The notes under the pieces were generated by a model that made no database searches, was not told the origin of the DNA, and worked only from the letters and a program-made list of their open reading frames with translations. Of a stretch of DNA of 64,000 bases, positions 6,148-63,708 are shown piece by piece (the stretch's first letter is position 1; the number at the start of each line of letters is the position of its first letter). Where the stretch lies: assembly GCA_000165345.1 (NCBI GenBank), contig CM000429.1, positions 320,001-384,000 of the forward strand, in the 5' to 3' direction. Position numbers and translations under genes: made by a program.

Positions 6148-6160
6148 GTGGCGCGCAAAC
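6148..6160. promoter_or_regulatory. E2F-like GC box (GTGGCGCGCAAAC) in bidirectional promoter between the Uso1-like gene and ATM1
   Basis: A GC-rich TTTSSCGC-type element in an intergenic region that is about 75% AT. CCAAT follows at 6160..6165. Confidence 0.4.
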
Positions 6161-9542: not shown

Positions 9543-9572
9543 TGGCACTTGCATGCATGCAAAACTTTGGCA
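9543..9572. promoter_or_regulatory. Symmetric composite element TTGGCAC-TT-GCATGCATGC-AAAAC-TTTGGCAC
   Basis: A GCATGCATGC palindrome flanked by two TTGGCAC copies, about 350 bp upstream of the DUF2439 gene. GCATGC is a motif I recall being reported as over-represented upstream of Cryptosporidium genes and bound by ApiAP2 factors. Confidence 0.35.
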
Positions 9573-9807
9573 CTAAATATTTGAATATTCATTTTCTATT
9601 TAACAAAATCTCAAAACAAGAAGTAAGCATAAAGCCATTTATTATATATTGATGAACCCGAACTTCAATTGCTCGATTAATTATTTATTCATACTTTAAT
9701 ATGGCTTGAAATCCAATATATATCAATAGAAATAATTCATGCACACAGTGAATTAGTAAAAGTAGAAAACTATGTTTAGCTTAGCTGAAAAAAAAAATGA
9801 AAAAAAC

Positions 9808-10490: not shown

Positions 10491-10734
10491 TTCTTTTTTT
10501 AATGGTTTCCTCCTTAAAGCTTCACCTGGGAAGATCTTTGATCTCTATTTGATTGGATCCAATATTTAATTTATTTTCATGATTATATATTCAACTAGTC
10601 GGAAAAGCGCTCTAAACGTACGGCATGTCTATAGTGCAAATACAAAAAATTGCAGATAAGTTAAATGATAGAAAAAAACTGCAATATTTTTTTTTTGATA
10701 AGATTAGAACTACCTAATATAATAATATAACAGA

Positions 10735-11775: not shown

Positions 11776-12004
11776 CTATATTTTTAGATCCTTTTCTTTA
11801 ACCTTTTTTCCTTAAAGTATAAATGGCTACTCTTCTAAAACACAATCCATATATACAAATTATCTTATTAGAAATTTTCCCGATTTACTCTTTTTTCCAA
11901 CTTCCATTCACTTACATGTAATATTTCTTAGATGGTAGACATATTCCCGCATATTTAAAGGCTCCCTAAACTATTATTTCTGCACCCCTAAATACCGCCA
12001 CATA

Positions 12005-12016
12005 TTCGGCGGGAAC
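12005..12016. promoter_or_regulatory. E2F-like site TTCGGCGGGAAC (second half-site TTCCCGC at 11944..11950)
   Basis: Lies in the bidirectional promoter between the DHHC gene (-) and the 12277 gene (+). Confidence 0.4.
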
Positions 12017-12276
12017 ATGAAGTCACTAAAAGTGGCAAGTATTAATCAAAGGAAAACTTGATCATTGAATTAACAAAGAAGACGAATGTTGTACAATTGA
12101 GATAAAATAACGGATGGGATTTTGGGGGTTTCCTGTACCCTTTTGGATTCTGTTCACTGCACGGCGATACATGTGTGTATTTCAAATTTTGAGTTTACGA
12201 GCAAAATATAGCTGGCTAGATCATTGATTAAGTATCACTAAAACTGAGTGAGGTCCATAAAAGTGTCCATATTACA

Positions 12277-16588: not shown

Positions 16589-16988
16589 TTTGTGTGAATA
16601 TACAAAAAATCATTTTCAAACCTGCCACGATATACCCGATTACGAACATGCTATAAATTGGTATATCCCCCCCGCATGAAATTTGCTGGAAAGAATAACT
16701 CAAAATGTGTTGCTAATTTATTTCAAAACCTAAATAAAGGTAAATCTTATCTTGATATAGCCCTTAGTTTCATTAAGTATTTCTTTTGGCAGAATTAACA
16801 TCAGTATTTCTAAAAAAAAATGCTCTAAATTCATTAGAATCATGTTGGCGGCAACTGCCAGAATTTACAAATTTCAATTATTACACTTTAGGAAATTAAA
16901 GCAGAAATTAAACTAAGCCCTGAAAAAAAAACTGAGACCATAGTTCATAATACTTCATTTATGAGCCTTTATTCTGAATTTTTTCGGA

Positions 16989-20098: not shown

Positions 20099-20112
20099 AT
20101 TTTGGGCGCCAA
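20099..20112. promoter_or_regulatory. E2F-like site ATTTTGGGCGCCAA about 65 bp upstream of the Mre11 ATG
   Basis: Matches the TTTGGCGC consensus. Mre11 is a classic E2F-target class (DNA replication and repair). Confidence 0.45.
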
Positions 20113-20291: not shown

Positions 20292-21746
20292 ATGTTAATT
20301 AATAGATGGGTAATATTTGCTTACTTATTTCAATTACTTTGGAGGTATATTATAAGTGAAGGAACTCAAATCAATGCAGCAACCGAAGAGAATGATGCTT
20401 ATAGGTATAATATCATAGCTGATGATCTTTTGAATATGGATTTTCCGGCGTATAAATTTAGAGATCTAAAAAGAAAGTCTAGAGTAATAATAGAGGCAAA
20501 TAATAGAATGTTGCATGTATTAGAGGATTTGTTAATAATTTCTGACGAAATCTTAGAAGGTTTTTCTGATCCTTCAAAAGAGCCATATTTTTTGGAGGAA
20601 TATAAATCTATCTCACTGGTAAGTCTTATTTTGAATGTAATTTAGTAATAGTAAATCAAAACCCTTAGGTTCCAAGTTCTTTGCTTAAGTTTTTAGTAGA
20701 TCACGTTGAAAAAATGTTAGAAAGCTTGCCTTCCTCAAAGCCAATAAGTTATTTTCTGTACAATGATGCAACTGAAGTTTATAGAAAGGCGCATATTGAA
20801 TTGCTAAAGGATTACAGAGTAGTAACAATAAGAGTTGCATGCAGGCTTTTAATCATCTCCGTATTGCTTTCCTCATTGGAGAACCTAGTTAATAAAGAGC
20901 ATTCAAAGAGTCTTAGCATTTCCTATCCATTTTTGGATGATATTATTATTCGCCCCAAATCCACAGCAAGGTCAAACGTTACAAAAGTTTTAAACAGAAT
21001 TTTGAACTCCATAAGAAATTATGGAAGGAGAATCAAAATAGGAATAAAGAAAAAGGTGGGTATGAGTGATGAATTTGAAATAATCGGTGCGGATTCTCCA
21101 GAAATAAATGAAAAGGAATTTCTTTCCGCTATTTATAATCACAGGCAAGGTTCGGTTAGATCTATATTTGGAAAAGATGAAGCAATCTTTGAAAACAAGC
21201 AAGAAGTTTTTCAGGTAATAAACAATTTTATAGGAAAACAAGAAAGAGACTCAGGAATATTACTACAAATCCTTGAAACAGTGATTAGAAAGGAGCTTGG
21301 AATCGAGAGTTCTCAAGAACTCCAATGGAACTCCGAAGCCAAAAGGAAACTTACAAATGTCTGTAGAGACAGCCATGTCCTGGAAATTTTACCAAATAGA
21401 ATAAAATTTAAAACATGTAGGCAGTTATTTAACAAGGCTGGTGAGATTTTGACGGGGTCTCACTTTAAGAATAGTGAAAAAGAAAGTCGTATGGCTGGAA
21501 GAGCAAATGTATTAAAAAAAATCAGAAGAATTTCTTCGATTAAGTTTATTCAGGTAAGTATCAAATTAAGCCAAACTGATATAAACAGATCTAATTCAGC
21601 TAAAATATATTCTCTTTTAGTCAATATTAATATACTATAATGTGAATGACAAATTATTGAAAGATCAATTGGCCAAAGTAAGTAAGGGGACATTGAATAG
21701 AAGTCATAGAGCGAGATATTCAGAAATATTAAATGCTGAAGACTGA
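20292..21746 (+). CDS. Hypothetical secreted protein (signal peptide), 3 exons
   Basis: Exons are 20292..20618, 20669..21553 and 21621..21746. Intron 1 (20619..20668, 50 nt) has donor CTG|GTAAGT and acceptor CCCTTAG|G. It fuses two track ORFs in frame. Intron 2 (21554..21620, 67 nt) has donor CAG|GTAAGT, branch site CTAAT and acceptor TTCTCTTTTAG|T. It extends the ORF by 41 codons to TGA at 21744..21746. The N-terminus MLINRWVIFAYLFQLLWRYIISEG is signal-peptide-like. Confidence 0.55.
20619..20668 (+). other. Intron 1 of secreted hypothetical gene (50 nt)
   Basis: Phase 0, GTAAGT donor and TTAG acceptor. It restores a continuous frame between the ORFs at 20277..20645 and 20681..21640. Confidence 0.65.
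21554..21620 (+). other. Putative intron 2 of secreted hypothetical gene (67 nt)
   Basis: GTAAGT donor, CTAAT branch site, and a polypyrimidine tract followed by TAG. The alternative is read-through to TAA at 21638..21640. Confidence 0.45.
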
Positions 21747-24324: not shown

Positions 24325-24347
24325 GGCGCGCCTTTGGCGGGCAAAAA
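24325..24347. promoter_or_regulatory. Composite GGCGCGCC palindrome + TTTGGCGGGCAAAA E2F-like site
   Basis: The only GC-rich element in the 550-bp divergent promoter between the 21767..24124 (-) and 24678..27830 (+) genes. Confidence 0.45.
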
Positions 24348-27870: not shown

Positions 27871-27879
27871 TTTGGCGCC
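27871..27879. promoter_or_regulatory. E2F-like TTTGGCGCC about 85 bp upstream of the 27962 gene
   Basis: Exact TTTGGCGC core in a short tandem intergenic spacer. Confidence 0.4.
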
Positions 27880-31078: not shown

Positions 31079-31093
31079 AGAATTCCCGCCTAA
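31079..31093. promoter_or_regulatory. E2F-like GAATTCCCGCCTAAA upstream of 4-TM protein gene
   Basis: TTCCCGCC core. Confidence 0.35.
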
Positions 31094-33134: not shown

Positions 33135-33146
33135 AATTTGGCGCCA
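33135..33146. promoter_or_regulatory. E2F-like AATTTGGCGCCA in divergent promoter of NEK kinase (-) and 33409 gene (+)
   Basis: Exact palindromic TGGCGCCA core. Confidence 0.45.
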
Positions 33147-35473: not shown

Positions 35474-35510
35474 TTGGCGCCCTCATGTGGTCAATGTTTG
35501 CGCATGCAAC
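35474..35510. promoter_or_regulatory. ATTGGCGCCC E2F-like site plus TTTGCGCATGCAAC (GCATGC motif) upstream of giant gene
   Basis: Two GC-rich motifs within 40 bp, 115-150 bp upstream of the ATG at 35626. More GCATGC copies are at 35136..35162 and 35388..35395. Confidence 0.4.
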
Positions 35511-38600: not shown

Positions 38601-41600
38601 GTTATATTCCTTACATCTGAGGAAACTACTTGCAAGGCTAAGTTTAAATGCGCTGATCTTGGACATTAGTGATAACTTCTTTAGAATTCCAAGATCAATC
38701 CCTATTTCATTAAGATTAAAGCTAAATAGAGGAACAGGCCTACTGTTTTCTGAACCTAATTTAGAAAATAATGGAATAGAAAATATGGAATTGAACCACT
38801 CTTTGATTAATGAAGATACTAAGGACAAGAAATACAACGTACCTATTCCTGGGTATATTGAAGAGGAATATAATGAACCAAGATCTTTGGATGTTGACCT
38901 AATGTTATCCATAAAGAAATTAACAGAGTGTGACCCAAGAACTGTCTTGGAAGAAACCAGTCATCCAATAGCATTTGAAAAAGCGACAAGAAACTCGATT
39001 ACAAGTGATAAAGTATTACAGACTTTATTTTCATTAATAGAACCTGAGTTTAAGTCCCAACTTAGAAGTTCATTAGAGCTTAATAAAGAAGAATTAAAAG
39101 AGGGTATTGGAGAATTGGACAGAAATCAGGATGAGGAAATTGTTCAATTGTTGTTAGGACTAAATCCAGACGAAAATATTGGTAGCGAAACAATTCTAAC
39201 ATTACTTAATGATTTAGAAACCATTGGTAATAGTACTTCTGATTATATGGATAATAAATCTCATTTATCTGATTCAGAATTTCATTCCCCAGATGAACAT
39301 AAAGTTAGTTCAGTTTCCAAAAAAATAGGATTTTCTTTAAAAAATTTAAAGAATAAAAATAATACAAAAGGTGATATAGTTAATGAAGATAGTAATGCTG
39401 TTCAATCAAAGAACAAAATGTCTTTAAAGCTAAAAAATTCAATATATAATTTATTTCTACTTAGAGTATTGGATCTAAAGTCATGGTTAAGTCAGTATAG
39501 AAAGCAATATATTGAAGAAACTAATAAGAGAATGGAAAGTTTAAGACAGTACAATTATTTGAATTTTGATAATAATTTTACTATACCACAAGGAAATAAT
39601 ACTAGGAATACTTCAAATACTAGTTCAAGCATTGCAGATAATAATAATAGTAATACCAATGGAGTTAATGAAAATAATAATGGCACTATCAATAATAACT
39701 CAATTATTAAATCAAGTGAATTAGACGTAACAGCTGCTGCTTCTTATTCATCAAAAATAAGTATTGAAGCAAAAGAGAATTTAAAAATGATGACAGATTT
39801 GGTATCAAATTTAAATAGATACGCAAGTCCAAGCATGCTTTTTTATTATTTACAATTATGTAAAAGATTAAGTTTAGGTGCAGATTTTACAATGACTTCA
39901 TTAATACCAGATAATTTGTTGTATAAAGGCGTAATTAGCAATGAAGAGGCATTAAGATTATATAGAGAAATTAATCCTAGTTTGAATTTTAATGATAATC
40001 CTCTTGGCTTTGATGTCGCAACTATTCACGAATTTTCAGCATTGAATACACCTAATTTGAATTTAAAAAGAGAGTTGGAATTGACAATAGAATCACAAAG
40101 AGAGTTTAATATGATTTTTCCATCAGCATTGCCATGTATACATTCAATATTTTGGGTTCCTTTTGATATTTATGATGATGACAATTTATGGATAATTCAA
40201 AGTAGAGAAAGACAGAATATTTCTCAGTTACTAGATTGTTTATCAAAGGATCATCCACAAATAATAGAATTACCATATATTGATGAAGAAGCTATGGATG
40301 AAAAAATGGAATGCGTAGAATTTGATAAAAATGACCAAGGCCTAACTAAACAAACATTGTATACATTATTACCACAAATTTCAAATAATGGAGGAATTGA
40401 AGATGGTTCTTGGCTTTGGAGTGAATTACCGATCAGATTTGCAATTGATTTAAATGGTTTAACAATTAGAAAGATGCATTCATCCTCAAATTATCCAAAA
40501 AGCATTTATTTATCTGGAAACCCATTATCAGTTTTAGGTCCTCAATCACCTCAATGGGCATTTATGAGCCATAAATCAGATAGAATTAATTATTTAAATG
40601 GAGTTTGCACTTTGAATTATAATATTATTAATAACAATAATAATAATAATAATATAGATTTTGATTCAAGCACAATATTTGGTGATCAAGCAATAATTGT
40701 TGCCCCAGGTATAGAAGTTAAAGGAACATCATTTACAATTGAAGTTTGGGTGAAATTGCCCCCGTTGTTTGATAAATTGGAAGAAATTAAAGAAGAAAAA
40801 GAATCGGATTCAGAAGTAAAAAATCAAAAAAGTAAATCAAAGTCTAAATCAAGAGCTAAAAGCAGAACAAAAATGGAGGGAAGAATTAGTTCAAGAGCAA
40901 AAAGTAAAAAGAAAAAAGTAGATATGCTATCTTCAAATAAAGATAAAAATCAATCATTATTAAGTCTAAGTAAATTACAAAAGAAACTTGTTGAAATAAA
41001 AGGAGGGAAAGAAGAAGATGATGAAAATGAACAAGCAAGTCTTGATGGAACAAATTCAGAAATCAGTGGAATTCAAAAAGAATCAGATGATTTAAATAAT
41101 GTTAATATGAAGAAAAAATTAGAATTACCAACATTACAAGTCCTATGTAGTACTGATGCAATGGAAGGATTATTTACAGTACATAGACCAACAGGAACAA
41201 TAGGATTTTGGGATAGTAATGGAAGATTTTTAAAATGCGTAATTAAGAATGATCAAAAAGAAATAAATAAGAATGAAATGCAATTTAAAAATTCTTCTTA
41301 TGTTGCATCTAATATTGCAACATTGCAAAATATTTATTCACAATTAGGATTGATAAAAAGAAGTACCTATTGCAAAGAAACTAATCAAGATATTGAACAA
41401 TTTATTAATTACATTGAAGATCCATTAATTCTTGATCCATGGGTTTTAGTACATATTGTTTATAATATGGGATCAATAAAATATTATGTAAATGGTAGGT
41501 TTATTGGTTCAATTAGAAAACCAAATGGTTTAAAAGGTGATATATCAGTAATTGGAGGAGGATTAGAAAGTGGATCAGGATGGGGTTATTTTAGTCAATT

Positions 41601-44600
41601 TAGAGTTTATGGAGTGCATACAAGTAATGAACAAATAAAAAGACGTTATGAATCATATATTTCACTCAATTCAGATAATTCATTTATTACTAAAATTAAT
41701 AAATTAACATCATCAACAATTAATTGGGCATTAACATTATGGAGAAGTGGTGCTGTAGGATTTTTCATATGGAAATATAGTCAAATAAATTTAAAACAAA
41801 ATGATGTTACGTATTTAATAGAATTAATTAATAGAAAAAGAAATGTTTTATGTAATGGAGATATTGTTGATGAGTCAGATAACGATAATAGCAATTTAAA
41901 AAATGGAATATTACTATTTGGTGTAATTATTAGAATATTAAAAGGAGAAAGATCTTTTCCATATTATTATGTATATGAACCATTACCCTATTTAGAAAGT
42001 ATTCAAGATGAGAACAGTGAAAAAAATGAATCAAATAATAAAATACAATTATCACCCATGAAATATAAAATGACTTCAATAACATCACAATTAGGGTATA
42101 GAATAACCGAAGATTATAAGAAAATTAAATTAGATAATGAAAAAGTATATAGAATGAACCCATTATTTTATCAGCCAAGTATAGTACCTGGCCCAGGAAT
42201 GTCAGAGTGTTTATTATTAGCATTTAACACAAAAAGTAATAATTCTGGATTATTGATAACACCACCAATTGAGTTGCAGAAAAAAATTATAAATAAAAAT
42301 AGAAATGCAAAGAATTCTATGAATAAAGATGATCAGAAAAAAAAAGGTAATGGTTTATTGAATGGTAATTTTGATGAAAAAAATGATGAAATATCAGAAA
42401 TTTCAGAATGTTATAATGGTTGGACAATAACTGTATGGTTTCATTATCCATTACTAACAAATTATTCATATACAATAAATAATTCTTCGAATCAAAATGA
42501 TGAGGATATGGTTACGAATAATTCCAAGAAAAAATCTAACTCAGATATTGATCATTATATAGTATTAGTAACGGGTAAAAATGATTCACATATAATAATA
42601 AATGAAAATATGGATGTTGGAGTATACAAAAACTTTTCACAGATCAGCAATAATAATATTAATATTAATAATAATAATAATAGTAATAATAGTAGTAATA
42701 ATAATAATAATTATAATTATTATAATAATTATAATAATAATAATAATAGTAATAATAATAATAATAATAATTACAATAATTACAATAATAATTATTATAA
42801 TAATAATTATTATAATAATTATAATAATAATATTAATATTAATAATAACAATTATATTAATAATAATACAAGCAATTATATTGAAAAGGGCTTTTATTCA
42901 TCTGGGTTTAATTTAAATAAATCAGAATTGCCTATCGGTTGGCATATGTTAACGGTTGTCGGTAAACCAAGAATGGAATATACAAAAACGGAAGATGAGA
43001 AAGAAAGGAGTATAGTTGGAGGAGGAGGATTAGGTTTCACGGAAATTACTAAGCCTATGCAGAAAAATATTAATTTATCAACACAATATAAGTGGTGCCA
43101 AGAATTTTATATTGACGGACAAATTATGGGTATTAGCTCATATTGTACCCATGAAAGTATTGTTATGATTGGAAATAGTTTATTTTTAGAAAATGCATTT
43201 GGAATATTTACATGTCCAAGAATTTTTAGTCACTCATTCTCACCGATGGAAATACATACTGATTTTTTGTCTTACAATTATTTAATAAAAGCAGGAAGTT
43301 GGAATTCAAAAGATGATATTTTATTACAATTTGATTATAACTCTATTACAAAGGAATTTCGTGTATTAGAAAATCCAAGCAACAAATTAAGATATATTTA
43401 TAATTTTGGTTCATCCCAATACTCGAATAAATATGATCAATTAAAAAATGTAACAAAAGACAGACGAAAAAAGAAAAAAAAACAATTATTAGAGGGAAAC
43501 TTGGAAATTGATGACCAATCTTATTGGTTAGATGAGATGGAATGCCAATCACCTTTGTTTAATTATATTGAAACATTTTTGAATAATAACTCATTTGATA
43601 ATGAAGCTAAATATATAATGGCAATAAGTAATAGCATGATTAATCAATCTGAAAGTGAAAGTAATAATAATAATGATAGTGCTAGCAATAATGTTAAAAC
43701 AAATAAGATTAATGATATTCTTGAAAATTTTTCAAATATTAACAAAAATAATAAAGAAGAAGTATGCCAAATAAATGTAAAAAATAATGGCATTATTACT
43801 ATTCATAGAGGGCCAACCAATGAAAATATATGTATTGACCCAACTCAAATTTTTATTCTAGAAAAAAAATCGGGATATTCGACAGAAGGTGGGAGTGTAA
43901 TATTAGAAAGGCCAGTAAGATTAAGTAAGAATTGGTCATGTGAAGTTTGGTTTTATGTTCCTTTTGAGATAACATTTCATCCTTATTGTTTGATATCAAA
44001 TAGTGACGGTATAGGATTTATTGTAATAGGTTTAAATGGTGAATTGGGATCAATACAAAGAAAAATAACAAATATGTATGAAAATAATGGTGTGATTTCT
44101 AAGAAAAATAATAAATATGATTCAAAAGGATATGAAAAGAATAATAATCGATTACAATTTTTATCTTGGGATGTAAATTTGAGAGATCATGTTGATGTTG
44201 GTTGGTACCATATGGTTGTTACATTTAATACAACGCAAAATAACACAATAACAACTTATATTAATTCTCAATGTATTGGAAAGAAGATGAATGCGTTTGA
44301 ATTACCACATCATCAAAGTCCATGGATTGACTGTATTGGTAATTTAAAATCATTCAAAGGAAATTACATTGCACCATTTGGACTATTTGGGCATTTAAAA
44401 ATATATGATTTTGCATTGTCTACGATAGAGGTCGGATTATTGTACAAAAGTTGGATGTGCCATAAAAATTTAAAGAAAGAAATATTAAATCGTCACATTA
44501 AACAAGAAAAATCTGCAATAACTAAGAACTACACTTTGTACAAAAATTTAATGAACAAAAATAATAATTTCAAGGAAGAGGAACGATCTGAAAACAAGGA

Positions 44601-44652
44601 TACGCACGATAAAGGTTTAGATCTCAATACAGATTCAGACTCAGAAGCTTAA
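35626..44652 (+). CDS. Giant multidomain membrane protein (3009 aa): signal peptide, TNFR/ephrin-receptor-like Cys-rich repeats, ~10-TM block, three ConA/LamG-like domains
   Basis: A single 9 kb ORF. The N-terminus MLVITEKIYHIKLLVIFLVIIIKIGVV is a signal peptide or anchor. Residues about 35-240 carry repeated C-x2-C...C-x-C-x-G-x-[FY] modules (CPIGYILEGNHCKLCESGTF, CTACGEGKYSF, CFQCSIGTYSE, CEICPNNQ). Many hydrophobic helices fall between about aa 260 and 760. The C-terminal 1400 aa hold three segments with the LamG_3/pentraxin-like signature (aromatic-h-h-V-h-Y...Y-h-N-G): FTIEVWVKLP...WVLVHIVYNMGSIKYYVNGRFIGS; GWTITVWFHYP...GWHMLTVVGK...EFYIDGQIMG; WSCEVWFYVPFE...VGWYHMVVTFN...YINSQCIGK. 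Confidence 0.8.
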   Translation: MLVITEKIYHIKLLVIFLVIIIKIGVVNTEHDLVCPIGYILEGNHCKLCESGTFSNKETNSCTACGEGKYSFPGSYSQSLCFQCSIGTYSEKEKSNSCEICPNNQITSTIGSTKKEDCFCMPGFKPASLRDETCVQCASTEWCYRVSPNSGGFWNVASYCYSVDLSKYSKDSTTHLLCNDMSLMSSKTANFQIPCFGSQCESLYRNNEVISNNNINSLMVVRCKEGSSGFLCDDCEDGYAKIDGLLGEVGSCKKCSLLNFTPFILSNLFIFGLIIYSVWVLRLEPTANEEEMPIVQVTIIRTTIQHMQFLGLLITTNVVRFEYFPNLTVAISYLGSSNSFLPLFQCLLSKFGIDRHGPEALKIYSIVISTMPFLLIIFAIIAAPILRYFREKEVRGFLLGRQEMEGECLQFQKSYFSWVFSLFIVSFFCYFSMSIKNIYSIISCTSLNIDIQNPTNSLMGSYVTPESMNLFQNTNNEIPGLLSVVSIAKENICWSHGHFVAIFYSLIGLVFWHILIPIVYLLCIYFDTKNDKIQRRRLVYGWWISGYENTNMNIWEITTYLSQIIYLIVILLIGILHTFNYVVAYYAVPGGSHYETLNPLCSPILSSFCCIVLTISLDSIYSFVRPNSQDFLRTGIQKVDISSVGVEDELLTEEQKQKQKVAYGGVNSKQTSRLNWSSYFYFIRRMSSFSIITVIFASILPRLNVNIENKIENLRGTWIDSVDTSLIPLGYGDFSIRFFSIFSVIVNYFFIFIILFSVLGIKIYKRVLPMLSSKSKVEVNIKSMSDFASSSDSIKQVNKGNQVNGRISNIGNAFVSYHDMNKTSQIGDQDGERVDDEISIEQLIRMHLRTDCLGFLSHEDRVSVVVAIKRCDNRQEGLAISLRATLDSRFGESGKYTLIENNLFVCESLRSYGFSDFGMEKLIEDLIEIHISITNRIKSVSRNSLKMALDLCIINYPEVAQKLGMEVIVPPDLNLNNMNEKSNIETNNNTEALYSLHLRKLLARLSLNALILDISDNFFRIPRSIPISLRLKLNRGTGLLFSEPNLENNGIENMELNHSLINEDTKDKKYNVPIPGYIEEEYNEPRSLDVDLMLSIKKLTECDPRTVLEETSHPIAFEKATRNSITSDKVLQTLFSLIEPEFKSQLRSSLELNKEELKEGIGELDRNQDEEIVQLLLGLNPDENIGSETILTLLNDLETIGNSTSDYMDNKSHLSDSEFHSPDEHKVSSVSKKIGFSLKNLKNKNNTKGDIVNEDSNAVQSKNKMSLKLKNSIYNLFLLRVLDLKSWLSQYRKQYIEETNKRMESLRQYNYLNFDNNFTIPQGNNTRNTSNTSSSIADNNNSNTNGVNENNNGTINNNSIIKSSELDVTAAASYSSKISIEAKENLKMMTDLVSNLNRYASPSMLFYYLQLCKRLSLGADFTMTSLIPDNLLYKGVISNEEALRLYREINPSLNFNDNPLGFDVATIHEFSALNTPNLNLKRELELTIESQREFNMIFPSALPCIHSIFWVPFDIYDDDNLWIIQSRERQNISQLLDCLSKDHPQIIELPYIDEEAMDEKMECVEFDKNDQGLTKQTLYTLLPQISNNGGIEDGSWLWSELPIRFAIDLNGLTIRKMHSSSNYPKSIYLSGNPLSVLGPQSPQWAFMSHKSDRINYLNGVCTLNYNIINNNNNNNNIDFDSSTIFGDQAIIVAPGIEVKGTSFTIEVWVKLPPLFDKLEEIKEEKESDSEVKNQKSKSKSKSRAKSRTKMEGRISSRAKSKKKKVDMLSSNKDKNQSLLSLSKLQKKLVEIKGGKEEDDENEQASLDGTNSEISGIQKESDDLNNVNMKKKLELPTLQVLCSTDAMEGLFTVHRPTGTIGFWDSNGRFLKCVIKNDQKEINKNEMQFKNSSYVASNIATLQNIYSQLGLIKRSTYCKETNQDIEQFINYIEDPLILDPWVLVHIVYNMGSIKYYVNGRFIGSIRKPNGLKGDISVIGGGLESGSGWGYFSQFRVYGVHTSNEQIKRRYESYISLNSDNSFITKINKLTSSTINWALTLWRSGAVGFFIWKYSQINLKQNDVTYLIELINRKRNVLCNGDIVDESDNDNSNLKNGILLFGVIIRILKGERSFPYYYVYEPLPYLESIQDENSEKNESNNKIQLSPMKYKMTSITSQLGYRITEDYKKIKLDNEKVYRMNPLFYQPSIVPGPGMSECLLLAFNTKSNNSGLLITPPIELQKKIINKNRNAKNSMNKDDQKKKGNGLLNGNFDEKNDEISEISECYNGWTITVWFHYPLLTNYSYTINNSSNQNDEDMVTNNSKKKSNSDIDHYIVLVTGKNDSHIIINENMDVGVYKNFSQISNNNININNNNNSNNSSNNNNNYNYYNNYNNNNNSNNNNNNNYNNYNNNYYNNNYYNNYNNNININNNNYINNNTSNYIEKGFYSSGFNLNKSELPIGWHMLTVVGKPRMEYTKTEDEKERSIVGGGGLGFTEITKPMQKNINLSTQYKWCQEFYIDGQIMGISSYCTHESIVMIGNSLFLENAFGIFTCPRIFSHSFSPMEIHTDFLSYNYLIKAGSWNSKDDILLQFDYNSITKEFRVLENPSNKLRYIYNFGSSQYSNKYDQLKNVTKDRRKKKKKQLLEGNLEIDDQSYWLDEMECQSPLFNYIETFLNNNSFDNEAKYIMAISNSMINQSESESNNNNDSASNNVKTNKINDILENFSNINKNNKEEVCQINVKNNGIITIHRGPTNENICIDPTQIFILEKKSGYSTEGGSVILERPVRLSKNWSCEVWFYVPFEITFHPYCLISNSDGIGFIVIGLNGELGSIQRKITNMYENNGVISKKNNKYDSKGYEKNNNRLQFLSWDVNLRDHVDVGWYHMVVTFNTTQNNTITTYINSQCIGKKMNAFELPHHQSPWIDCIGNLKSFKGNYIAPFGLFGHLKIYDFALSTIEVGLLYKSWMCHKNLKKEILNRHIKQEKSAITKNYTLYKNLMNKNNNFKEEERSENKDTHDKGLDLNTDSDSEA
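42648..42872 (+). repeat. (AAT)n-rich trinucleotide microsatellite coding poly-Asn/Tyr/Ile inside the giant gene
   Basis: AATAATAAT...TATAATTAT repeats encode NNNINNNNNSNNSSNNNNNYNYYNNYNNNNN... over about 75 codons. Confidence 0.9.
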
Positions 44653-44747
44653 AAATATATTGAATAAAAATTTGAAATGATTAATAATCTAAATATAAAA
44701 ATAATTTATAATTCAAATAATAGAATGATTTAAAATTTTATTTTTTA

Positions 44748-46427
44748 TTATTTATTGTTGATTTTACTATTAAATTGATGAATCATCATATCATTTGAAA
44801 TTAAATCTTTAAGCAAATCAAGTTTGTTTAGTATTTCTCCAACGTTGTTATGAAATTTGTTAAATTGACCATTGTTATTATTACTAGTAAATGTGATAAT
44901 TCCAGCTGGCTGATTAATTTTTGCAGAAAAAATACCCCTCTCAACGAGATGATTGACAACAAGCTGCAACTCTTGGCCATCCAAATTTAATAAATCTTGT
45001 ACTCTTTGGAATGAAATAGTTTTATAATAGCAAGAAATAATTGAAATGTTTCTCTCTTGAATTCTTTGCATGAACAGAGTAAATCTGTCTTTTTTGTTGC
45101 AAAGATTGATTTTGCATCTTTTATATTCTGTGTAGTACACATTATTCATTTCATAATCGTTGTTAGAGAAAAAGAAGCAATTTGATAGCTGATTAAAATA
45201 CTTAGGAACTGTATAGTTGAAATTTTTTGTTGATTCCAGGAATATGAGCTCGTTATTAATATAATCATTCAGTAAGTCTGAAATATATTGGACATTTCTT
45301 TCAATATGCTTCTGATAATCTTTGTTAAATTTAATTAGTTCATCTCTAATATTGGTTGAGTAAGGACCAAGAATGAGGTAAATGACATATCCTTCAATAC
45401 ATGAAGCAGTAGTTGGCATTTTCTCAGAAAAATTATATTGAGAAATAGGGGACTTCATATATTCTGGAATCTCACCGATTAGTTTTTCATAGCTATTCTC
45501 AGTGTCATTCTCAAAATTTGCAATTGAGTTGAGAAGGTTTAGAAAGCACATAGAAATTTCCTTGGGGCTTTGTTCGTAGTGCCATAAAATGATTAGGTAT
45601 TGATAATATATTACCTTAAGATCGATGAATTTTTCGATAATTTTCGGGTTTATCTTCTTGGCAAATATTTGAAGTCTAACAAAGTCTTTGCATAATAAGG
45701 AAAGTCTCATCTGCTCAAGTACGTATTGAGTTTTCTCCCTAAGATCCATATTTCCAATGGTTTCTACAGTTATATCTTCTAGAAGTTTAGAGGCCTCCTT
45801 CAAGTCATTATCTTCCTGTTTAATATTGCTGAGAATGAGCATCAATCTTGCCCTCTCGAGCTCCAGATATATCTTACCTTGAGTAATCTCACTTAGAATT
45901 GTGATAATTTTGTTACATTCCAGCATATTCTTGATTTCGTAGGAAATACTCCTATAAGATTCTTCTAAATTTGTTACGGTCTCAATATGTTTCCTAGAAG
46001 AGTTGTACTTTGCAAAATTGGGACTTAGAGCGACTATGGAATCAACTACGAGGTTTAAGAATAGTTGGATAATATATGATATCACCTTTTTAAGTTGGCT
46101 TCTTTTCTTACAAATTTTCTGAATGACTGATAGAGGTTCATCAATATTTTTAGAGTATTTTAGAAGCCACAAAATAATTTTATATATTATTTTACAGCTA
46201 GAATTCGAATCAGAAACTTGCCTGCATTTTTTCTCTAAAACCAATAATTCTTCGACAGCATTCTGAAAGTTCACTTCATTAACTCCAGCATTTTCCAATT
46301 TGGTAATTAAGCTATCCGTTTCTGCAGACAAGTCTTGGGTGCATTTTGGGTCTTTCACCAGAGATTCTAGTTCTGATATTGGATTCACAGTTTCATTCAA
46401 TTGTTCTCTAGTATTTTGGTCTTGCAT
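44748..46427 (-). CDS. RPN5: 26S proteasome regulatory (lid) subunit RPN5/PSMD12 (PCI domain)
   Basis: LSEITQGKIYLELERARLMLILSNIKQEDNDLKEASKLLEDITVETIGNMDLREKTQYVLEQMRLSLLCKDFVRLQIFAKKINPK matches human PSMD12 [83 protein letters not shown]. The C-terminal PCI/winged helix reads ISCYYKTISFQRVQDLLNL...AGIITF. Confidence 0.9.
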   Translation of the reverse strand: MQDQNTREQLNETVNPISELESLVKDPKCTQDLSAETDSLITKLENAGVNEVNFQNAVEELLVLEKKCRQVSDSNSSCKIIYKIILWLLKYSKNIDEPLSVIQKICKKRSQLKKVISYIIQLFLNLVVDSIVALSPNFAKYNSSRKHIETVTNLEESYRSISYEIKNMLECNKIITILSEITQGKIYLELERARLMLILSNIKQEDNDLKEASKLLEDITVETIGNMDLREKTQYVLEQMRLSLLCKDFVRLQIFAKKINPKIIEKFIDLKVIYYQYLIILWHYEQSPKEISMCFLNLLNSIANFENDTENSYEKLIGEIPEYMKSPISQYNFSEKMPTTASCIEGYVIYLILGPYSTNIRDELIKFNKDYQKHIERNVQYISDLLNDYINNELIFLESTKNFNYTVPKYFNQLSNCFFFSNNDYEMNNVYYTEYKRCKINLCNKKDRFTLFMQRIQERNISIISCYYKTISFQRVQDLLNLDGQELQLVVNHLVERGIFSAKINQPAGIITFTSNNNNGQFNKFHNNVGEILNKLDLLKDLISNDMMIHQFNSKINNK

Positions 46428-46583: not shown

Positions 46584-46596
46584 TTTGGCGCGCAAG
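46584..46596. promoter_or_regulatory. E2F-like TTTTGGCGCGCAA about 160 bp upstream of RPN5
   Basis: TTTGGCGCGC core. Confidence 0.4.
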
Positions 46597-48933: not shown

Positions 48934-49534
48934 TTATGTAGCTGGAAAAAACTCAAATAATCAAGAATTTAATACCATGAAGTACTCAGAATATTAAAGC
49001 GTGTTCCTTCAATACCCATATCAAATTAATTGTCATTAGCCTCTGTTCTCAAGAATCACCAATGCAAATATTGATGTATTAAGAGATATTTAACCCCACA
49101 TCTGTCCGCCCGCCAGCTCTAGTGGCGGTATCATGTATTCATTTTTTTTCCAATAGCTATATCAATAAGGAAACAATTATGATAAGATAAAATCACAAAA
49201 ACAATCTTGAATATCAAGTTGAAAGTCTTTAGTAAATTATTGATTCATTTGATTATTTTTTGTATGAGACTTTTTCTTTAATAAATGATAATTTGCCGTT
49301 CAGCGGGTATTGGGGGGAAATCACGGTATTACACAAAATTGAATTTTTGAGCTGTTTGATAAAAGTTCTTTAAATAAAGACTCAAGTTAGATTCATAATT
49401 TTTATTAAAGATTAGTAAAATTTTTACTAGATAGGTGCTAGTCCTGAAGAATCAAGTATTTTCTTTTTGGAATGCAGAAATATTGATTTTGAGCTTTAAG
49501 TTAACGAGGTTGGAGCCTAATTTAATTGATTAAA

Positions 49535-51641: not shown

Positions 51642-52829
51642 TTAATGCAAGAAGTTATCCACAATACTTGTGGGGTTGTTAATGTTAGGTGGTTGCATAG
51701 GCTGTTTCATGGGAGACATGGTTTGCCTGATCTCTTCTAATATATTTGCGTGGCCATTAATGACGTCAACATTAAGCTGTGAGGACTGATGCTTTAGTAG
51801 AATGCTCCAATGAGAGTCTAAAATTTGTGATTGAACTGAAATCATACCGCTTTCAGTATGGCTATTTTTAGTTCTTAGAATAGAATTTAGTAGTTGATAG
51901 GAGTGCTGGTTGGGATTTAAAGTGATAGACGAGTCTATGGGCATAGATATAGAAACGATTGTGTTAGTGTTTACAGGGCACAATTTTGAAAGGGTTTCTC
52001 TGTCAGCATATAACAATCCTTGCTCTTGCCCTACCTGAATAAGCTCCTGAATCGAATCTTTGATTTTTGATATAGCTTGTTCCAGCTCTAATTGAGACTT
52101 TGTGTAAAAGATAATATTTTCATCATTCTCTTCATCTTGCAAAAGTCCAGAGCTCATATCCATATTAAGCTTATAAATATTATGCCTAGGTTTAGTGAAT
52201 AATCCTACTGCTTCAAGTACATTAGTAATATCGTAAAGCCTTCTTCTAGGCACCCCGAGTTTATTTTCTACACTTTGTAGATCAATTTCATATTTTGGGC
52301 TTTGTTTTGCATATTCAATAACCTTTTCAGTAAGTAATAATAAACCACTTTCTGCTCTAGATTGTTCAGAACCTAATTGAGGGCTTTGTCTAGAAGTTAG
52401 TGATGGCGATAAACTCCTCGGAGAGCTAGACGGGCTATTTGAATAATAAGGAGAAGACTGATGATATGAATTTGGAGAATATGGGTAGTTCATATGTGGC
52501 GGCGGCGAAGTCGATGATCTCCTAATATTTGAAGAATTCCGACTTGCTCTTGCAGGACCAGACTGTATTGGAGGGATATCACTAATTAAATTTCTAGATG
52601 GAATGTTAGTCAAAGATGAACTTTTCATCATTGTATATCCAGAAACACAACTGCTTTCACTAAAAATGCTGTCAGATCTATATAGCATACCTGCATTATT
52701 TACTGGGTTGTCATTGTATAACAAAATATTTTCTTCAAAGTTTGGAGAGTTAATTGGCGAATAATCGTATTGTTGAATGTAAGAGCCATCCTGGAGTGTT
52801 CCCAACTCGCCTTGTTGGCTGTGCTGCAT
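51642..52829 (-). CDS. E2F: E2F-family transcription factor (E2F/DP winged-helix DNA-binding domain)
   Basis: The E2F_TDP core is ...[42 protein letters not shown] (compare human E2F [27 protein letters not shown]). A leucine-zipper/marked-box-like region follows ([19 protein letters not shown]). The N-terminus is Ser/Pro-rich. Confidence 0.8.
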   Translation of the reverse strand: [395 protein letters not shown]

Positions 52830-53206
52830 TGGCTACTTTAATTTTTACTCAAATTTGAACTATCCTATAAAATCTTAAATTATTAGCCCTAACCGCTGTT
52901 CTCTAAATTGACCTGTGCAAAACGAATTTGCGAGGAGCGCCAGAAATAAGGCGCCTTGGTGCTTTTTGCGGTTAATGTAAATTTAGCCCCAATATAAGGT
53001 TTAGTAGCAATTAATTTGAGCAAATTTTTTACTTCAGAGAATAATTTTTTTGCAGTAAATAATATTGACTGCACTCATTGATTATATCGCTCAATTCTGA
53101 TATAGTTTGTTTGGAAAGGCGAGGCCTACTTAATTGGTTTCTCATTTTAGGGAGAGGGGCTAAAAGAATTAGACAACAGTTTCTATTCCGAATTTAGCTG
53201 GTAAAA

Positions 53207-54955
53207 ATGTCATCTTCACGTTCAAACTCGCCATATGATACAGATAGGCATAGAGGAAACTATGAATGGGAGGATAATGATAGAAGGAGAGTTGCAGATA
53301 ATGAGGGGCGCAGAGATCGCGACTTTGACAGTGAAAGAGGAAGAAGGCGTGAGCACTATGGAGGAAGAGATAGAAGAAGAGATTTCAGAAGAAGATCAGT
53401 AGAGAACTCAAGAGGTGGGAGGCATAGGGATGATGAAAACATGGATAAGGGTAAAAATGATGATCAGAATAATTCTCAATGGGAGCGTGAACGCGAAAAA
53501 GAAAGAGACAGAGATAGGGAAAGAGATAGAGAAAGAGATAGAGATAGAGATAGAGATAGAGATAGAGATAGAGATAGAGATAGAGAAAGAGATAGAGAAA
53601 GAGATAGAGAAAGAGATAGAGAAAGAGATAGAGATAGAGAAAGAGATAGAGATAGAGAAAGAGATAGGGAACGAGATAGGGATAGGTACAAAGAAAAAAT
53701 TAAAGATAGAGGATATATGGAAAAGAAGCGATCAAAAGGTTATCGATCAAAAAGGAGATCATCTTCTGTATCTTCAGATGACTCAGATTTGCCCCCAAGG
53801 AGATACAGAGAATTCAAAAGCAGAAATAGGAGGCGTAGAAGAAGTGTTTCTAGCTCTAGGTCATCTAGTGAGGTAAGCAGTTCTTCTGAATATGAAAGGC
53901 GCGACAGAAACTACGAAAGAGGCCGTGGAAGAGATAGGGATCGTTACAAAAGAAGCCGAAGAAATTATTCTTCTGATGAATCTTCTCCTGAGCGAGCCTA
54001 CAGACACAGGGAAAACAAGTATAGTAAAAAACATAAAAACTATTATTCTGAATCAGGATCTAGCTCTGATTCAGAAATCGATCGATCTGGACATAAGAGG
54101 CGCCATGAACCAGACAATTACGACTGGAAAGATAGATCAAAAGACTTTCATGTAGATATCCAAGAGGAAAACCATTCATCAAAGAAATGGCAGCCAGCCT
54201 CTAGCAGCTCAGTTGAGAAAGAAGGATCCGGCTACACTTCAAAGAATAATGTAGATACTTCCAGGAATAATACTAATGTTGAACTGAATAATTACAATTC
54301 AAGTTATGAAGAAGGCATCCCAGAAAACTCCACATGTGTGACTCTTTGTGAGAGGTTAATGGATATTAGAAATATGAGCGAGCCTCAAAGATGTAATAAG
54401 TCAATTGCCAAACTTCTAGATTTGATCCTTGACAATAGCGACGAATTTTTGGCTGAAGATACTGCTGGGAGAGAGCTCACTAAACAACAATTTATTACAT
54501 GGTTTGTAATAAACCAGCAAAATGGTCCCTCTATTGCTGATTCTGAAGTTACATCTTCCAAAATGGAAAATAGGAGGCAAAGGTTTACTAGGGTGAACAA
54601 AAGATTGTTTACCGAGATATCCTCTTCTGAATCATATTCGTTAGACTTTGAAGAATTAAGGGACAAAGAATCTGATGAAACTATTAATACTCAAATAGTC
54701 CTTTATGGATGCAAAAAAGGAAAGCTAATAAGAGTTTATGTTATTAAAGACAAGGATGACCTTACTATGAAGGATAACATATCTCTTAACAAGCTAAAAA
54801 GTCATAAGATTTTTGCTGTTTTTCTTAGATACTTACAAAAGAAAGGAATAAAATACCCGCGTAATAACTACGGAAATGATGAGGACCAAAATCCACATTT
54901 TGACGGGGTCTTTCACTACTACGACTTTGTCAACAATCAAAATATAATAGAGTAA
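53207..54955 (+). CDS. Arg-Asp/Arg-Glu (RD/RE) and RS-repeat protein, probable splicing/RNA-processing factor with conserved C-terminal domain
   Basis: The N-terminal 170 aa are an (RD/RE)n dipeptide repeat encoded by an (AGAGAT)n microsatellite. RS/SR-type stretches follow ([23 protein letters not shown]). The C-terminal 200 aa are non-repetitive. Confidence 0.65.
53503..53687 (+). repeat. (AGAGAT)n hexanucleotide microsatellite, ~30 units, in-frame coding for (RD/RE)n
   Basis: Near-perfect GAGATA/GAGAAA iteration. Other frames give (EI)n and, on the minus strand, (SL)n, which explains the spurious track ORFs 53415..53876 and 53476..53691. Confidence 0.9.
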
Positions 54956-57893: not shown

Positions 57894-58789
57894 AGCAGCT
57901 TGAAGGTTTTATACTCTCATCCCCAATATGATTGCCTAATATAATATAAGATTTGCTCTGAAAGCGTTTTTTAATTATAAAACAACTCTCGTTTTCTTTT
58001 TTTTATTTTGGACGATTTTCCCCTTCTCCCTCTTAATAGAATAATATTAAACCTTCTATAGTCAATTCTTAACTGCTAAGCTAATAATACTTAGATTGAC
58101 GGTATTATTATAGGCTATTATTGATTGTTGTCTGGCTGTCTATACCTTTTTGCGCTTTAAACCTTTCCCCCTTAATACACGTACGTAGAAAGACGTATAC
58201 CCACAACTTTCTATTTTACTTTCACTTTCCTCATTCTATTTTCTTAGTCCACTAACAATTTAATGCCCCTTAAATTAACAAGGTCATATGTATTGTCTCC
58301 CACCGCCCATTTGGATGGGCGGCACCATAATTTTAGAAAGTTTAATTGTGACTGAATTTTTATTGACTGCTATAGATGCCCTCCTTTACTGTATGGCTTC
58401 GAAAATATTCGATAGTGCGTGCTAATCCAACCCTTGAATTCCCTGTTAGGATTCCCAAATATGTACATTTCTGTTATAGGCTACTGCTCTTCATTACTTT
58501 GATTTCTTAGCTTCGCATTCTCTACAATATAATTTATACAAGTTCATTATTGGCGCTCACAAAAGCTCCATCAGAGAGGCGCGGATTGACTGTTTTCAAC
58601 TTGACAGTTTGTGGAAATCAATAGTCAGACCGCACCGTTCATTAAAGGCAGCAATTGAACTCGACTTAGAGTTGAATCGAAACTGATCCTTCTCATTCAT
58701 TTGTATACTGTGAATACGAATATGAGATTTTGACTGCTTTACATTAAAATTTTTGCAAGTTAATAAGGTATCGTGATTATTTGGCTTCA

Positions 58790-59368: not shown

Positions 59369-59755
59369 GTCTATCTGATCGATTTATCACAATCTATTCA
59401 GTTAAAATATATGATGTTTATATATACTATACTAGAAAAAGTAAGGATTGGTTTTTAATTTATGTAGTAAGAAAAAAGCGAAAGTTTGGATATGTTGATA
59501 TGGCTTATTACGTAAAGGATTCATTTACAACATAGGAATTCATCTTTGGTCAATATTCGAAGCTAAGCCACAGTAATTACTATATTTTTTTATTTGCTTG
59601 TGGCAACTTCAATGACAGAATATTGCGGCTTTTAAAGGCATAAAATTTCCTCCCGCTTAAAGACAAACTTTTAAATTAAGTGTTATGAACAAATTCCTTT
59701 CAATTTTGTAAATTAGGTAGATTTGGATTTTCTACATATTACTGTATTTGGTTCG

Positions 59756-60109: not shown

Positions 60110-60180
60110 GTATTTAATTTAACATTTATTCTCTTTAGCAATTACGATCTCGTATTTTAGTATTTTTGTCTTAATTTGAT

Positions 60181-60199
60181 GGGGGGGGGGTGCATGCAT
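60181..60199. promoter_or_regulatory. G10 tract followed by TGCATGCAT
   Basis: A unique homopolymer G run in a 30%-GC genome. It abuts a GCATGC motif about 100 bp upstream of the 60290 ATG. Confidence 0.3.
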
Positions 60200-60289
60200 C
60201 TTCTCTTTGCCCCCTCATGTTTGTTTTACGTCCAGTTAGGAAATGTAGTTGATCTTTAAATTATTACTCATTTGGTTTGTATTTTTCAA

Positions 60290-63694: not shown

Positions 63695-63708
63695 TCTGGG
63701 CGCCGCCT
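63695..63708. promoter_or_regulatory. E2F-like TTCTGGGCGCCGCC upstream of 63062..63559 gene
   Basis: GGCGCC core, about 140 bp upstream of the ATG on the minus strand. Confidence 0.3.

Follow-up and report, generated by a model that had tools for sequence, protein, structure and literature searches.

The locus at 51642..52829 of the stretch of Cryptosporidium parvum chromosome 1 analyzed here (64,000 nucleotides, referred to as the window) raises the question of whether the E2F-family factor encoded there is the protein that reads the E2F-like elements recurring in the surrounding intergenic regions, including the one upstream of its own gene. The prediction of a minus-strand E2F-family gene was borne out by the open reading frame, by the Pfam match and by the predicted fold, and the following features were assigned to it:

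51642..52829, minus strand: E2F-subfamily transcription factor gene, 395 aa with an ATG start (open reading frame and Pfam E2F_TDP)
52170..52352, minus strand: winged-helix DNA-binding domain, aa 160-220 (Pfam, PDB alignment and AF2/Foldseek)
52023..52133, minus strand: long helix directly C-terminal of the DNA-binding domain, aa 233-269 (AF2 model, fragment 84-120, pLDDT ~85)

This open reading frame is the chromosome 1 member of the two annotated C. parvum E2F genes. The published E2F/DP set consists of the E2F genes cgd1_1560 and cgd6_1430 and the DP genes cgd7_3650 and cgd8_1850 (PMC12246861), and the label of the present gene varies by paper, either cgd1_1560 / cpbgf_1001560 or cgd1_1570. 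The possibility that the divergent neighbor (53207..54955) is E2F-related, which would explain the label 'cgd1_1570 = E2F', was ruled out by domain and similarity comparison, given that its product showed zero Pfam matches even at E<=10 and zero similarity to the E2F protein. There is no DP gene within the 64-kb window, and the published DP genes are located on other chromosomes. The C. hominis E2F/DP protein is 99% identical to the 395-aa product, orthologs of 391-411 aa are present in 11 other Cryptosporidium species, and outside this genus the closest relatives by protein similarity are E2F1/E2F3, not DP.

Pfam E2F_TDP (PF02319) matched aa 160-220 with E=1.1e-16 and 60.7 bits (gathering score, 25.7), and the single stretch of this type in the Pfam and PDB alignments indicates one DNA-binding domain, which aligns to E2F4 (1cf7_A) and E2F8 (4yo2_A). 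The DNA-contact motif RRLYD (RRxYD) occupies aa 196-200, with R196, R197, Y199 and D200 unchanged in 24/24 aligned E2Fs, and the context extending over aa 196-207 is of the E2F type, as distinct from the DP-type context of the same motif. In the AF2 model, a monomer built from 24 sequences, the confident parts are the DNA-binding domain (pLDDT ~90) and one long helix. The best Foldseek match was 1cf7_A, human E2F4 (TM (target) 0.86, rmsd 1.9 Å, 67 columns, 39% identity); the matches ranking below it were winged-helix only because the marked-box region is not resolved in the model, where pLDDT drops below 50 past aa ~300. The helix at aa 233-269 is probably the coiled coil through which the protein would pair with DP, as judged from the model. 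Pfam E2F_CC-MB (PF16421) gave a weak match over aa 246-313, whose 18.1 bits do not reach the cut-off of 33.9, and is precomputed for three orthologs (P0003, P0009 and P0010), and a profile of 10 Cryptosporidium orthologs compared with the PDB matched the E2F8/E2F4 DNA-binding domains only, with no CC-MB structure. The C-terminus is kept within the genus, according to the ortholog alignment. On the evidence of sequence and model, the protein is a 'typical' E2F, with one winged-helix domain carrying RRxYD followed by a long helix, and pairing with DP is predicted. It shares the single domain, RRxYD and the following helix with human E2F4-DP2 on DNA (PDB 1CF7) and with E2F1-6, but differs from them in a long Ser/Pro-rich N-terminal region of ~150 aa, and its candidate marked box falls below the Pfam cut-off. 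Although the best PDB profile match was to the atypical E2F7/E2F8 (PDB 4YO2, E=9e-11), those proteins have two tandem DNA-binding domains and are DP-independent, whereas the C. parvum protein has one domain.

The original prediction also listed ten E2F-like sites in the window. All ten were found at those coordinates, within a few bases, but the list was incomplete, having missed the sites at 16847, 49109, 58318, 58578 and 62813. Outside the spacer of the E2F gene itself, the sites are:

6150..6155: core GGCGCG (GGCGCGC), divergent spacer between g1023 and an ABC transporter gene
12008..12013: GGCGGGAA, core GGCGGG(AA), divergent spacer between a DHHC gene and g463
16847..16852: core GGCGGC, divergent spacer between g962 and g247
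20105..20110: core GGCGCC, divergent spacer between Mre11 and g117
24325..24341: double site, GGCGCGCC (24325) and TTTGGCGGG (24336), divergent spacer between g785 and g1050
27874..27879: TTTGGCGCC, in a 131-bp tandem spacer, 83 bp upstream of g665
31085..31090: TTCCCGCC, tandem spacer, 290 bp upstream of g227
33140..33145: TTTGGCGCC, divergent spacer between a protein kinase gene and g245
35476..35481: TTGGCGCC, divergent spacer between g277 and the gene of a 3008-aa protein
46587..46593: TTTGGCGCGC, 160 bp upstream of the PSMD12/RPN5 gene
49109..49114: CCCGCC, divergent spacer between a WD40 gene and a DUF2009 gene
58318..58583: cores GGCGGC (58318) and GGCGCG (58578), 896-bp divergent spacer between a CCCH zinc finger gene and g192
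62813: GCCGCG, a weaker variant
63699..63707: GGCGCCGCC, 140 bp upstream of g165

The core [C/G]GCGC[G/C], GGCGGG or the close variant GGCGGC is present in 16/17 spacer sites, the seventeenth being that at 62813, and the palindromic variants GGCGCC/GGCGCG prevail. Regarding the neighboring genes as they had been named, the supposed NEK gene does encode a protein kinase, but the NEK subtype was not confirmed; neither was the 'Uso1-like' gene, for which no Pfam domain was found. The sites resemble those of E2F1-6 in having a CG core and a T-rich flank. Compared with the Arabidopsis E2F sites TTTCCCGCC / TTTGGCGGG that PMC3734150 cites from Ramirez-Parra 2003, three sites in the window are identical to plant sites (24336, TTTGGCGGG; 31085, TTCCCGCC; and 12008, GGCGGGAA); unlike the plant sites, however, the window favors the palindromic variants.

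The frequency of the motif was evaluated in the 10,832 bp of spacers of the window against 1000 dinucleotide-preserving shuffles. As predicted, it lies above the dinucleotide expectation, by 10- to 20-fold: GGCGCC occurs 6 times (0.26 expected), GGCGSS/SSCGCC 18 times (1.71 expected) and TGGCGS 16 times (1.90 expected), and for each of them 0/1000 shuffles gave a count as high. Site density is 1.66/kb in spacers versus ~0.19-0.21/kb in coding sequence, a ~9-10-fold difference. An unsupervised k-mer scan placed TGGCGC and GGCGCC among the top five 6-mers, TGGCGC being the most widely spread of the leading motif k-mers (8 spacers). The AT content of the spacers is 65-76%, somewhat lower than the 75-80% originally given. 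Other GC-rich elements are also enriched in the spacers, namely the G-box-like CCCCAC and TGCATGCA; hence, the motif is not their only GC-rich island, as had been thought.

With respect to gene organization, the expectation that the motif occurs at most bidirectional promoters proved correct, since an E2F-like site is present in 10/10 divergent spacers, near the center (relative position, 0.30-0.77). There is typically one site per promoter-bearing spacer, at a median of ~210 bp from the start codons, and a single central, often palindromic site per divergent spacer could therefore serve both genes. In total, 24/31 genes of the window (~77%) have the motif upstream. The promoter spacers carry 16 sites in 8.4 kb, and the 1.5 kb of convergent spacers none, making the window a clean quantified example of this arrangement; the absence from convergent spacers is, in the window alone, only suggestive (P=0.08, not significant). 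When the syntenic locus of 8 other species was pooled, densities of 1.55/kb in promoter spacers, 0.10/kb in convergent spacers and 0.15/kb in coding sequence were obtained; the pooled P value counts related species as independent samples, and the exclusion becomes convincing only with these non-independent samples added. At four tandem sites inspected by eye, a sample too small for this purpose, the T-rich flank did not point consistently toward or away from the downstream gene.

Phylogenetic footprints of five spacers across the genus revealed that the motif sites rank in the top two or three conserved 8-mers, in spacers that are otherwise ~55-58% identical; the species used for comparing positions have E2F proteins ~67-97% identical to that of C. 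parvum. In the spacer of the 46587 site, TTGTCTnnCGCGCCAA is one of the two best-conserved blocks in 7 species. The site at 49109 has orthologous GGCGGG/CCCGCC sequences in C. meleagridis, C. ubiquitum, C. canis and C. xiaoi, and GCCGCC in C. ryanae, while those within 58318..58583 have orthologous sites in 7/8 other species, C. ryanae being the exception. These alignments support the idea that the sites may be under functional constraint.

The control region of the E2F gene was included in this comparison, and its features are:

52830..53206: divergent spacer common to E2F and its RS/RD-rich neighbor at 53207 (gene map, 377 bp)
52935..52942: second E2F-like site, GAGCGCCA (TGGCGCTC on the strand of the gene), conserved in the spacer alignment
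52950..52955: palindromic core GGCGCC, preceding the ATG of E2F by 121 bp and that of the neighbor by 252 bp

The elements upstream of E2F had been described as weaker, but one of these two sites carries the perfect palindromic core. They are separated by 7 bp, their cores lying 14-15 bp apart from start to start, and both form islands of conservation in seven species, ~100-125 bp ahead of the E2F ATG. The offset of GGCGCC is near-constant (about -107 to -126) in C. meleagridis, C. ubiquitum, C. canis and C. felis, and C. ryanae has GGCGGG in that place. The 52935..52942 site is the second-best conserved 8-mer of the spacer alignment (0.89), and its CGC is invariant in 7/7 species. In C. xiaoi the motif is absent at the aligned primary site, and in C. 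muris and C. andersoni it is found elsewhere in the E2F spacer. The conservation of both sites strengthens the original suggestion that E2F may regulate its own gene.

Taken together, we consider it likely that the gene is the chromosome 1 E2F, that the motif is the known E2F motif, and that E2F/DP heterodimers bind and open most promoters, including their own. According to this proposal, the (T)TGGCGCC / GGCGCG / GGCGGG elements, which are the known Cryptosporidium 'E2F motif', would be bound by E2F/DP heterodimers; the bound complex would establish an open promoter competent for transcription, or keep it open, at most housekeeping-type genes; the E2F gene would be among its own targets, giving an autoregulatory loop; and the set of motif-bearing promoters would not constitute a dedicated cell-cycle regulon. 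That the chromosome 1 E2F, acting with DP, binds the motif is what we infer, as is the direction in which it affects transcription.

The gene, the motif and its marking of promoters were already known and are correctly rediscovered here, because both facts were published between 2003 and 2013 and extended in 2025 (Bankier 2003; Templeton 2004; Mullapudi 2007; Oberstaller 2013/2014; Xiao et al. 2025; Gunasekera 2025, a review). The motif survey that the original prediction mentioned corresponds to Oberstaller 2013 (PMC3734150), in which 5'-TGGCGCCA-3', [C/G]GCGC[G/C] and GGCGGG are the most over-represented upstream motifs, a subject also covered in PMC4117751; the E2F-like family comprises motifs 3 and 4 of that survey. 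More recently, the motif was reported to dominate sporozoite ATAC-seq peaks and to be present at bidirectional promoters, and autoregulation of E2F was proposed (Xiao 2025 preprint, bioRxiv 10.1101/2025.01.17.633476). The gene and the motif described here are the same as in that system, with no essential difference; what is added is a footprint across the genus for five spacers, together with the arrangement of two sites in the promoter of the E2F gene. E2F/DP represents the one classical eukaryotic transcription factor family kept by Cryptosporidium and lost by other apicomplexans, and the apparent presence of the motif on most promoters would make it central to understanding gene expression in a major diarrheal pathogen, and possibly to perturbing it, a significance already recognized by the field.

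A different reading accepts the conserved promoter element as genuine but assigns it to a reader other than E2F/DP, either another protein or nucleosome positioning by CpG/GC islands, so that the likeness to an E2F site would be coincidental. Consistent with it, the strict, asymmetric textbook 8-mer TTTSSCGC shows a marginal excess (3 versus 0.58 expected, with 26/1000 shuffles reaching 3), in contrast to the strong enrichment of the short palindromic core, and the motif precedes ~77% of the genes whatever their function, whereas E2F regulons in animals and plants are restricted. Furthermore, a search of the literature to mid-2026 found no ChIP, CUT&RUN, PBM or EMSA evidence of binding for any Cryptosporidium E2F/DP; Oberstaller 2013 cautioned that the presence of the motif is not proof of binding (PMC3734150), and a 2025 review noted that functional validation is missing for most such components (PMC12246861). 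Nevertheless, Cryptosporidium is the sole apicomplexan genus in which E2F/DP is retained and the motif is over-represented (PMC3734150, PMC4117751, PMC12246861), and the base-contacting RRxYD motif is preserved exactly in the protein, together with an E2F4-like fold. Many sites have T-rich flanks (TTTGG / TTGG), with 9 occurrences of TTGGCGS versus 0.8 expected. In addition, the control hexamers GCCGGC, CCGCGG, GGGCCC, CGGCCG and CCCGGG are at expectation in the spacers, and this speaks against an effect of composition or nucleosomes alone. We therefore regard a reader other than E2F/DP as rather unlikely.

Very improbable, in our judgment, is that the motif defines a specific regulon of cell-cycle, DNA-repair and chromatin genes, as in animals and plants, a preference that the original prediction implied. 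It is true that Mre11, the gene in the SNF2 neighborhood, the protein kinase and the proteasome RPN5 gene are preceded by the motif, and that DNA repair and replication are among its published GO enrichments, along with many other categories (PMC3734150). However, the 24/31 motif-preceded genes are of mixed function and also include those encoding the ABC transporter, the DHHC palmitoyltransferase, the DUF2009 and CCCH zinc-finger proteins, the giant Ephrin-receptor-like-repeat protein (3008 aa) and proteins with no recognized domain, whereas the SNF2 gene lacks a site in the part of its upstream region that the window covers (1-555). Moreover, the motif lies upstream of 161/200 expression clusters, whose peaks are spread over all time points (PMC3734150, PMC4117751). 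The Cryptosporidium target set appears to comprise most genes, as opposed to the G1/S regulon of E2F1-6. As for the notion that the recurrence is a chance or compositional artifact of scanning AT-rich spacers by eye, invited by an initial scan that lacked statistics and permitted several variant patterns, it is refuted by the shuffles (0/1000), the de novo recovery in the k-mer scan, the flat control hexamers and the positional conservation across species, and its probability is negligible.

Returning to the E2F/DP proposal and to the promoter of the E2F gene, its two E2F-like sites are flanked by an inverted TAACCGC / GCGGTTA pair (52890-52896 and 52968-52974) that is unique among the spacers of the window, and the right arm of this pair is the top conserved 8-mer of the E2F spacer in seven species. 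A Myb site has the consensus YAACNG, which TAACCG fits. AACCGC/GCGGTT was rejected as a general spacer motif, with 2 observed versus 1.6 expected, both in the E2F spacer. It is conceivable, although quite improbable, that the bidirectional E2F promoter forms a composite, conserved control module, as opposed to an ordinary promoter with an E2F motif. If a Myb-type factor binds the inverted pair, autoregulation of E2F would be coupled to a second ancient factor; such coupling, if true, would be reminiscent of the animal E2F/Myb-MuvB logic in an organism without Rb, given that no retinoblastoma-family partner or ortholog has been reported in apicomplexans (PMC3734150). The sequence 52830..53206 matches, at 377/377 positions, the published C. 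parvum fragment 'pcgd1_1570 (pE2F)', which worked as a promoter of moderate strength in transfected C. parvum (PMC11337648 Table S2), and the two sites offer a precise target for mutagenesis inside a promoter fragment already in experimental use.

The minus-strand ORF at 51642..52829, predicted to encode a factor of the E2F/DP winged-helix type, begins with an ATG, specifies 395 aa and carries the protein signature claimed for it. Pfam placed the winged-helix domain at aa 160-220 (60.7 bits, gathering score 25.7) and matched aa 246-313 to the E2F coiled-coil/marked-box family with a score below threshold. The product aligns with the DNA-binding domains of human E2F4 (1cf7_A) and E2F8 (4yo2_A), shares 99% identity with an E2F/DP-domain protein of C. 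hominis, and has orthologues genus-wide; the RRxYD motif is invariant among 24 aligned E2Fs. Unlike E2F7/8, it showed a single DNA-binding domain in the Pfam and PDB profile searches, and for this reason it is predicted to be a typical, DP-dependent E2F rather than one of the E2F7/8-like kind. In an AlphaFold2 model of aa 150-395, the winged helix was confident (pLDDT about 90) and led directly into a confident 37-residue helix (aa 233-269); the model was not resolved past about aa 300. Its top structural match in the PDB was 1cf7_A (TM 0.86, rmsd 1.9 Å), the E2F4 chain of an E2F-DP-DNA complex. No DP gene lies within the window; two have been located on chromosomes 7 and 8 (PMC12246861).

All ten coordinates listed in the original prediction contain GC-core elements as described. 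ORFs of 100 aa or more that start with ATG gave a gene map with 31 genes. Its 31 non-coding intervals, 29 spacers between genes and one interval at either end of the window, add up to 10,832 bp. The expected excess over dinucleotide composition was clear in these spacers: GGCGCC was found 6 times (0.26 expected from dinucleotide-preserving shuffles), GGCGSS/SSCGCC 18 times (1.71 expected) and TGGCGS 16 times (1.90 expected), counts that none of 1000 shuffles reached for any of the three patterns. Motif density in coding sequence was about one-ninth of that in spacers. Five further GC-only hexamers occurred in the window spacers at their expected counts, without enrichment; therefore, the signal is not simply that of any GC island. 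An unsupervised scan of k-mers, run as a de novo search with an order-2 background, placed TGGCGC and GGCGCC within the top five over-represented 6-mers. TGGCGC was present in 8 spacers, the widest spread of the leading motif k-mers, whereas the over-representation of TGCATGCA was more extreme yet confined to 3-4 spacers.

The proposed location at divergent promoters was borne out, since all 10 divergent spacers of the window contain at least one site, at relative positions from 0.30 to 0.77. None of the 10 convergent spacers has one, but within the window alone this contrast is only suggestive (P=0.08), because convergent spacers are short. A site is present in the upstream spacer of 24 of the 31 genes, at a median of 212 bp from the start codon (range 83-685 bp).

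The E2F gene was also said to have such elements upstream, and two were identified in its spacer (52830-53206, 377 bp):

Sites in the E2F gene upstream spacer
52935-52942, E2F-like site GAGCGCCA
52950-52955, perfect GGCGCC

This spacer is 100% identical to the C. parvum promoter 'pcgd1_1570 (pE2F)' of PMC11337648 (Table S2), a fragment that served experimentally as a moderate-strength promoter; the window therefore belongs to chromosome 1 of C. parvum. As printed in that table, the promoter points towards the plus-strand neighbour at 53207 and away from the E2F ORF. The literature is inconsistent on the E2F gene ID, which is cgd1_1570 in PMC3734150 and PMC11337648, and cgd1_1560 / cpbgf_1001560 in PMC12246861 and bioRxiv 10.1101/2025.01.17.633476. 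The neighbour (53207-54955, plus strand) encodes a protein of 582 aa that has Ser/Arg-rich tracts and long stretches of (RD/RE)n dipeptide repeats, and that shows neither a Pfam match nor similarity to the E2F protein; the two genes are divergently paired in 9 of 9 species. A nested ORF in another frame (53415-53876, 153 aa) is a by-product of the neighbour's repeat. Both E2F-like sites are flanked by an inverted pair, TAACCGC (52890-52896) and GCGGTTA (52968-52974); AACCGC occurs twice in the window spacers (1.6 expected), never outside the E2F spacer. TAACCG fits the Myb consensus YAACNG.

We compared the syntenic 21-kb locus in C. meleagridis, C. ubiquitum, C. canis, C. felis, C. ryanae, C. 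xiaoi, C. andersoni and C. muris, throughout which gene order is kept. Pooled over these eight species, promoter-bearing spacers had a motif density of 1.55/kb, against 0.10/kb for convergent spacers and 0.15/kb for coding sequence. The nominal P for this contrast, 2e-5, is no more than indicative because the species are related. In the window and in four other species, the GGCGCC core of the E2F spacer keeps an almost fixed distance to the ATG (about -107 to -126); C. ryanae has GGCGGG at this position. In a 7-species alignment of this spacer (mean column identity 58%), TGGCGCTC, its second site, was the second most conserved 8-mer; in the WD40/RPN5 spacer, TTGTCTnnCGCGCCAA and the adjacent CCCCCACA were conserved far above other blocks. 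This phylogenetic footprint argues for functional constraint on the E2F-like sites. The top conserved 8-mer of the E2F spacer in the 7 species was AACCGCAA, the right arm of the inverted TAACCGC/GCGGTTA pair. The G-box-like copy at about 46540, CCCCCACA, is almost invariant in 7 species; some 45 bp separate it from the E2F-like site that is conserved in the RPN5 promoter.

Pfam confirmed SNF2, ABC half-transporter, Mre11, protein kinase and PSMD12/RPN5 proteins in the window. The suggested association with DNA-repair, chromatin and cell-cycle genes was not supported: the motif equally precedes genes for DHHC palmitoyltransferase, DUF2009, WD40 and CCCH proteins, for a 3008-aa protein with Ephrin-receptor-like repeats and for many products without a recognised domain, and the 555 bp upstream of the SNF2 gene contain no site. 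Nothing here points to a regulon dedicated to the cell cycle or to repair. This lack of category preference agrees with published data, in which 161 of 200 expression clusters have the motif upstream (PMC4117751).

The analysis showed to which family the E2F protein belongs, how strongly the motif is enriched, where it lies and how it is conserved. On the best-supported reading, E2F/DP heterodimers would occupy the E2F-like sites, typically one per promoter region, and for most genes, the E2F gene included, these sites would serve as a general promoter element or open-chromatin element. Since the sites tend to be palindromic and central, a divergent gene pair could share a single one. Others have shown that the E2F spacer has promoter activity (PMC11337648) and that sporozoite ATAC-seq peaks, over half of them annotated as bidirectional promoters, are dominated by the motif (bioRxiv 10.1101/2025.01.17.633476); the literature searched contained no report of Cryptosporidium E2F/DP binding to the motif. 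The main rival, in which the GC core is read by another factor or reflects an intrinsic DNA property, is made less probable by the base-contacting residues retained in the E2F protein, by the co-occurrence of factor family and motif in Cryptosporidium alone among apicomplexans, and by the absence of any excess of the other GC hexamers.

Every element of this finding is already in print; it is a correct rediscovery. E2F/DP retention in Cryptosporidium is credited to Templeton 2004 (as cited in PMC3734150) and the motif to Bankier 2003 and Mullapudi 2007 (as cited in PMC3734150 and PMC12246861); it is the top over-represented upstream motif (PMC3734150, PMC4117751), autoregulation of the E2F gene has been proposed (bioRxiv 10.1101/2025.01.17.633476), and a 2025 review summarises these findings (PMC12246861). 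The small additions are the local statistics, footprints across the genus for five spacers, the arrangement of two sites in the E2F promoter, and the conserved inverted TAACCGC/GCGGTTA pair around them.

Five tandem spacers were without a relaxed 5-mer E2F core:

Tandem spacers without a relaxed 5-mer E2F core
9198-9959, tandem spacer
10437-10734, tandem spacer
20646-20713, tandem spacer
59369-59755, tandem spacer
60110-60289, tandem spacer

They fall within the same-strand runs DHHC<-EF-hand<-ZGRF1_N, g117->g308 and g192->HIT->g465 (g-numbers are ORF-map genes), and the first gene of each run has an upstream site. Polycistronic units, as described by Xiao et al. 2025 (bioRxiv 10.1101/2025.01.17.633476), and another promoter type are candidate explanations; the 68-bp g117/g308 gap may alternatively be explained by an intron or by a gene model that was split. 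The known ApiAP2 motif TGCATGCA occurs at 9550, 9554, 35136, 35154 and 60191 (5 versus 0.18 expected). These copies cluster in three spacers, two of which, upstream of ZGRF1_N and of g465, are promoters without the E2F-like motif. The G-box-like CCCCAC/GTGGGG was found 7 times in spacers versus 0.9 expected (9534, 19806, 24558, 24617, 33116, 46540 and 49094).

The SNF2 ORF (end 2979) and a convergent 1023-aa ORF (end 2976) share their last 4 bp, with no convergent spacer between them. The 3' half of the Ephrin-receptor-like-repeat gene (39000-45000) is AT-rich beyond usual coding sequence (GC 0.22-0.29), with strongly positive GC skew. At the E2F locus of C. muris and C. andersoni no HIT gene was called, and the convergent gaps beside the E2F/RS-rich pair (6114-7644 and 11234-12809 in C. 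muris, 6409-7792 and 11237-12812 in C. andersoni, locus coordinates) contain no called gene. These gaps measure 1.4-1.6 kb in the gastric species versus 90-340 bp in intestinal species, and represent either uncalled genes or a real intergenic expansion.
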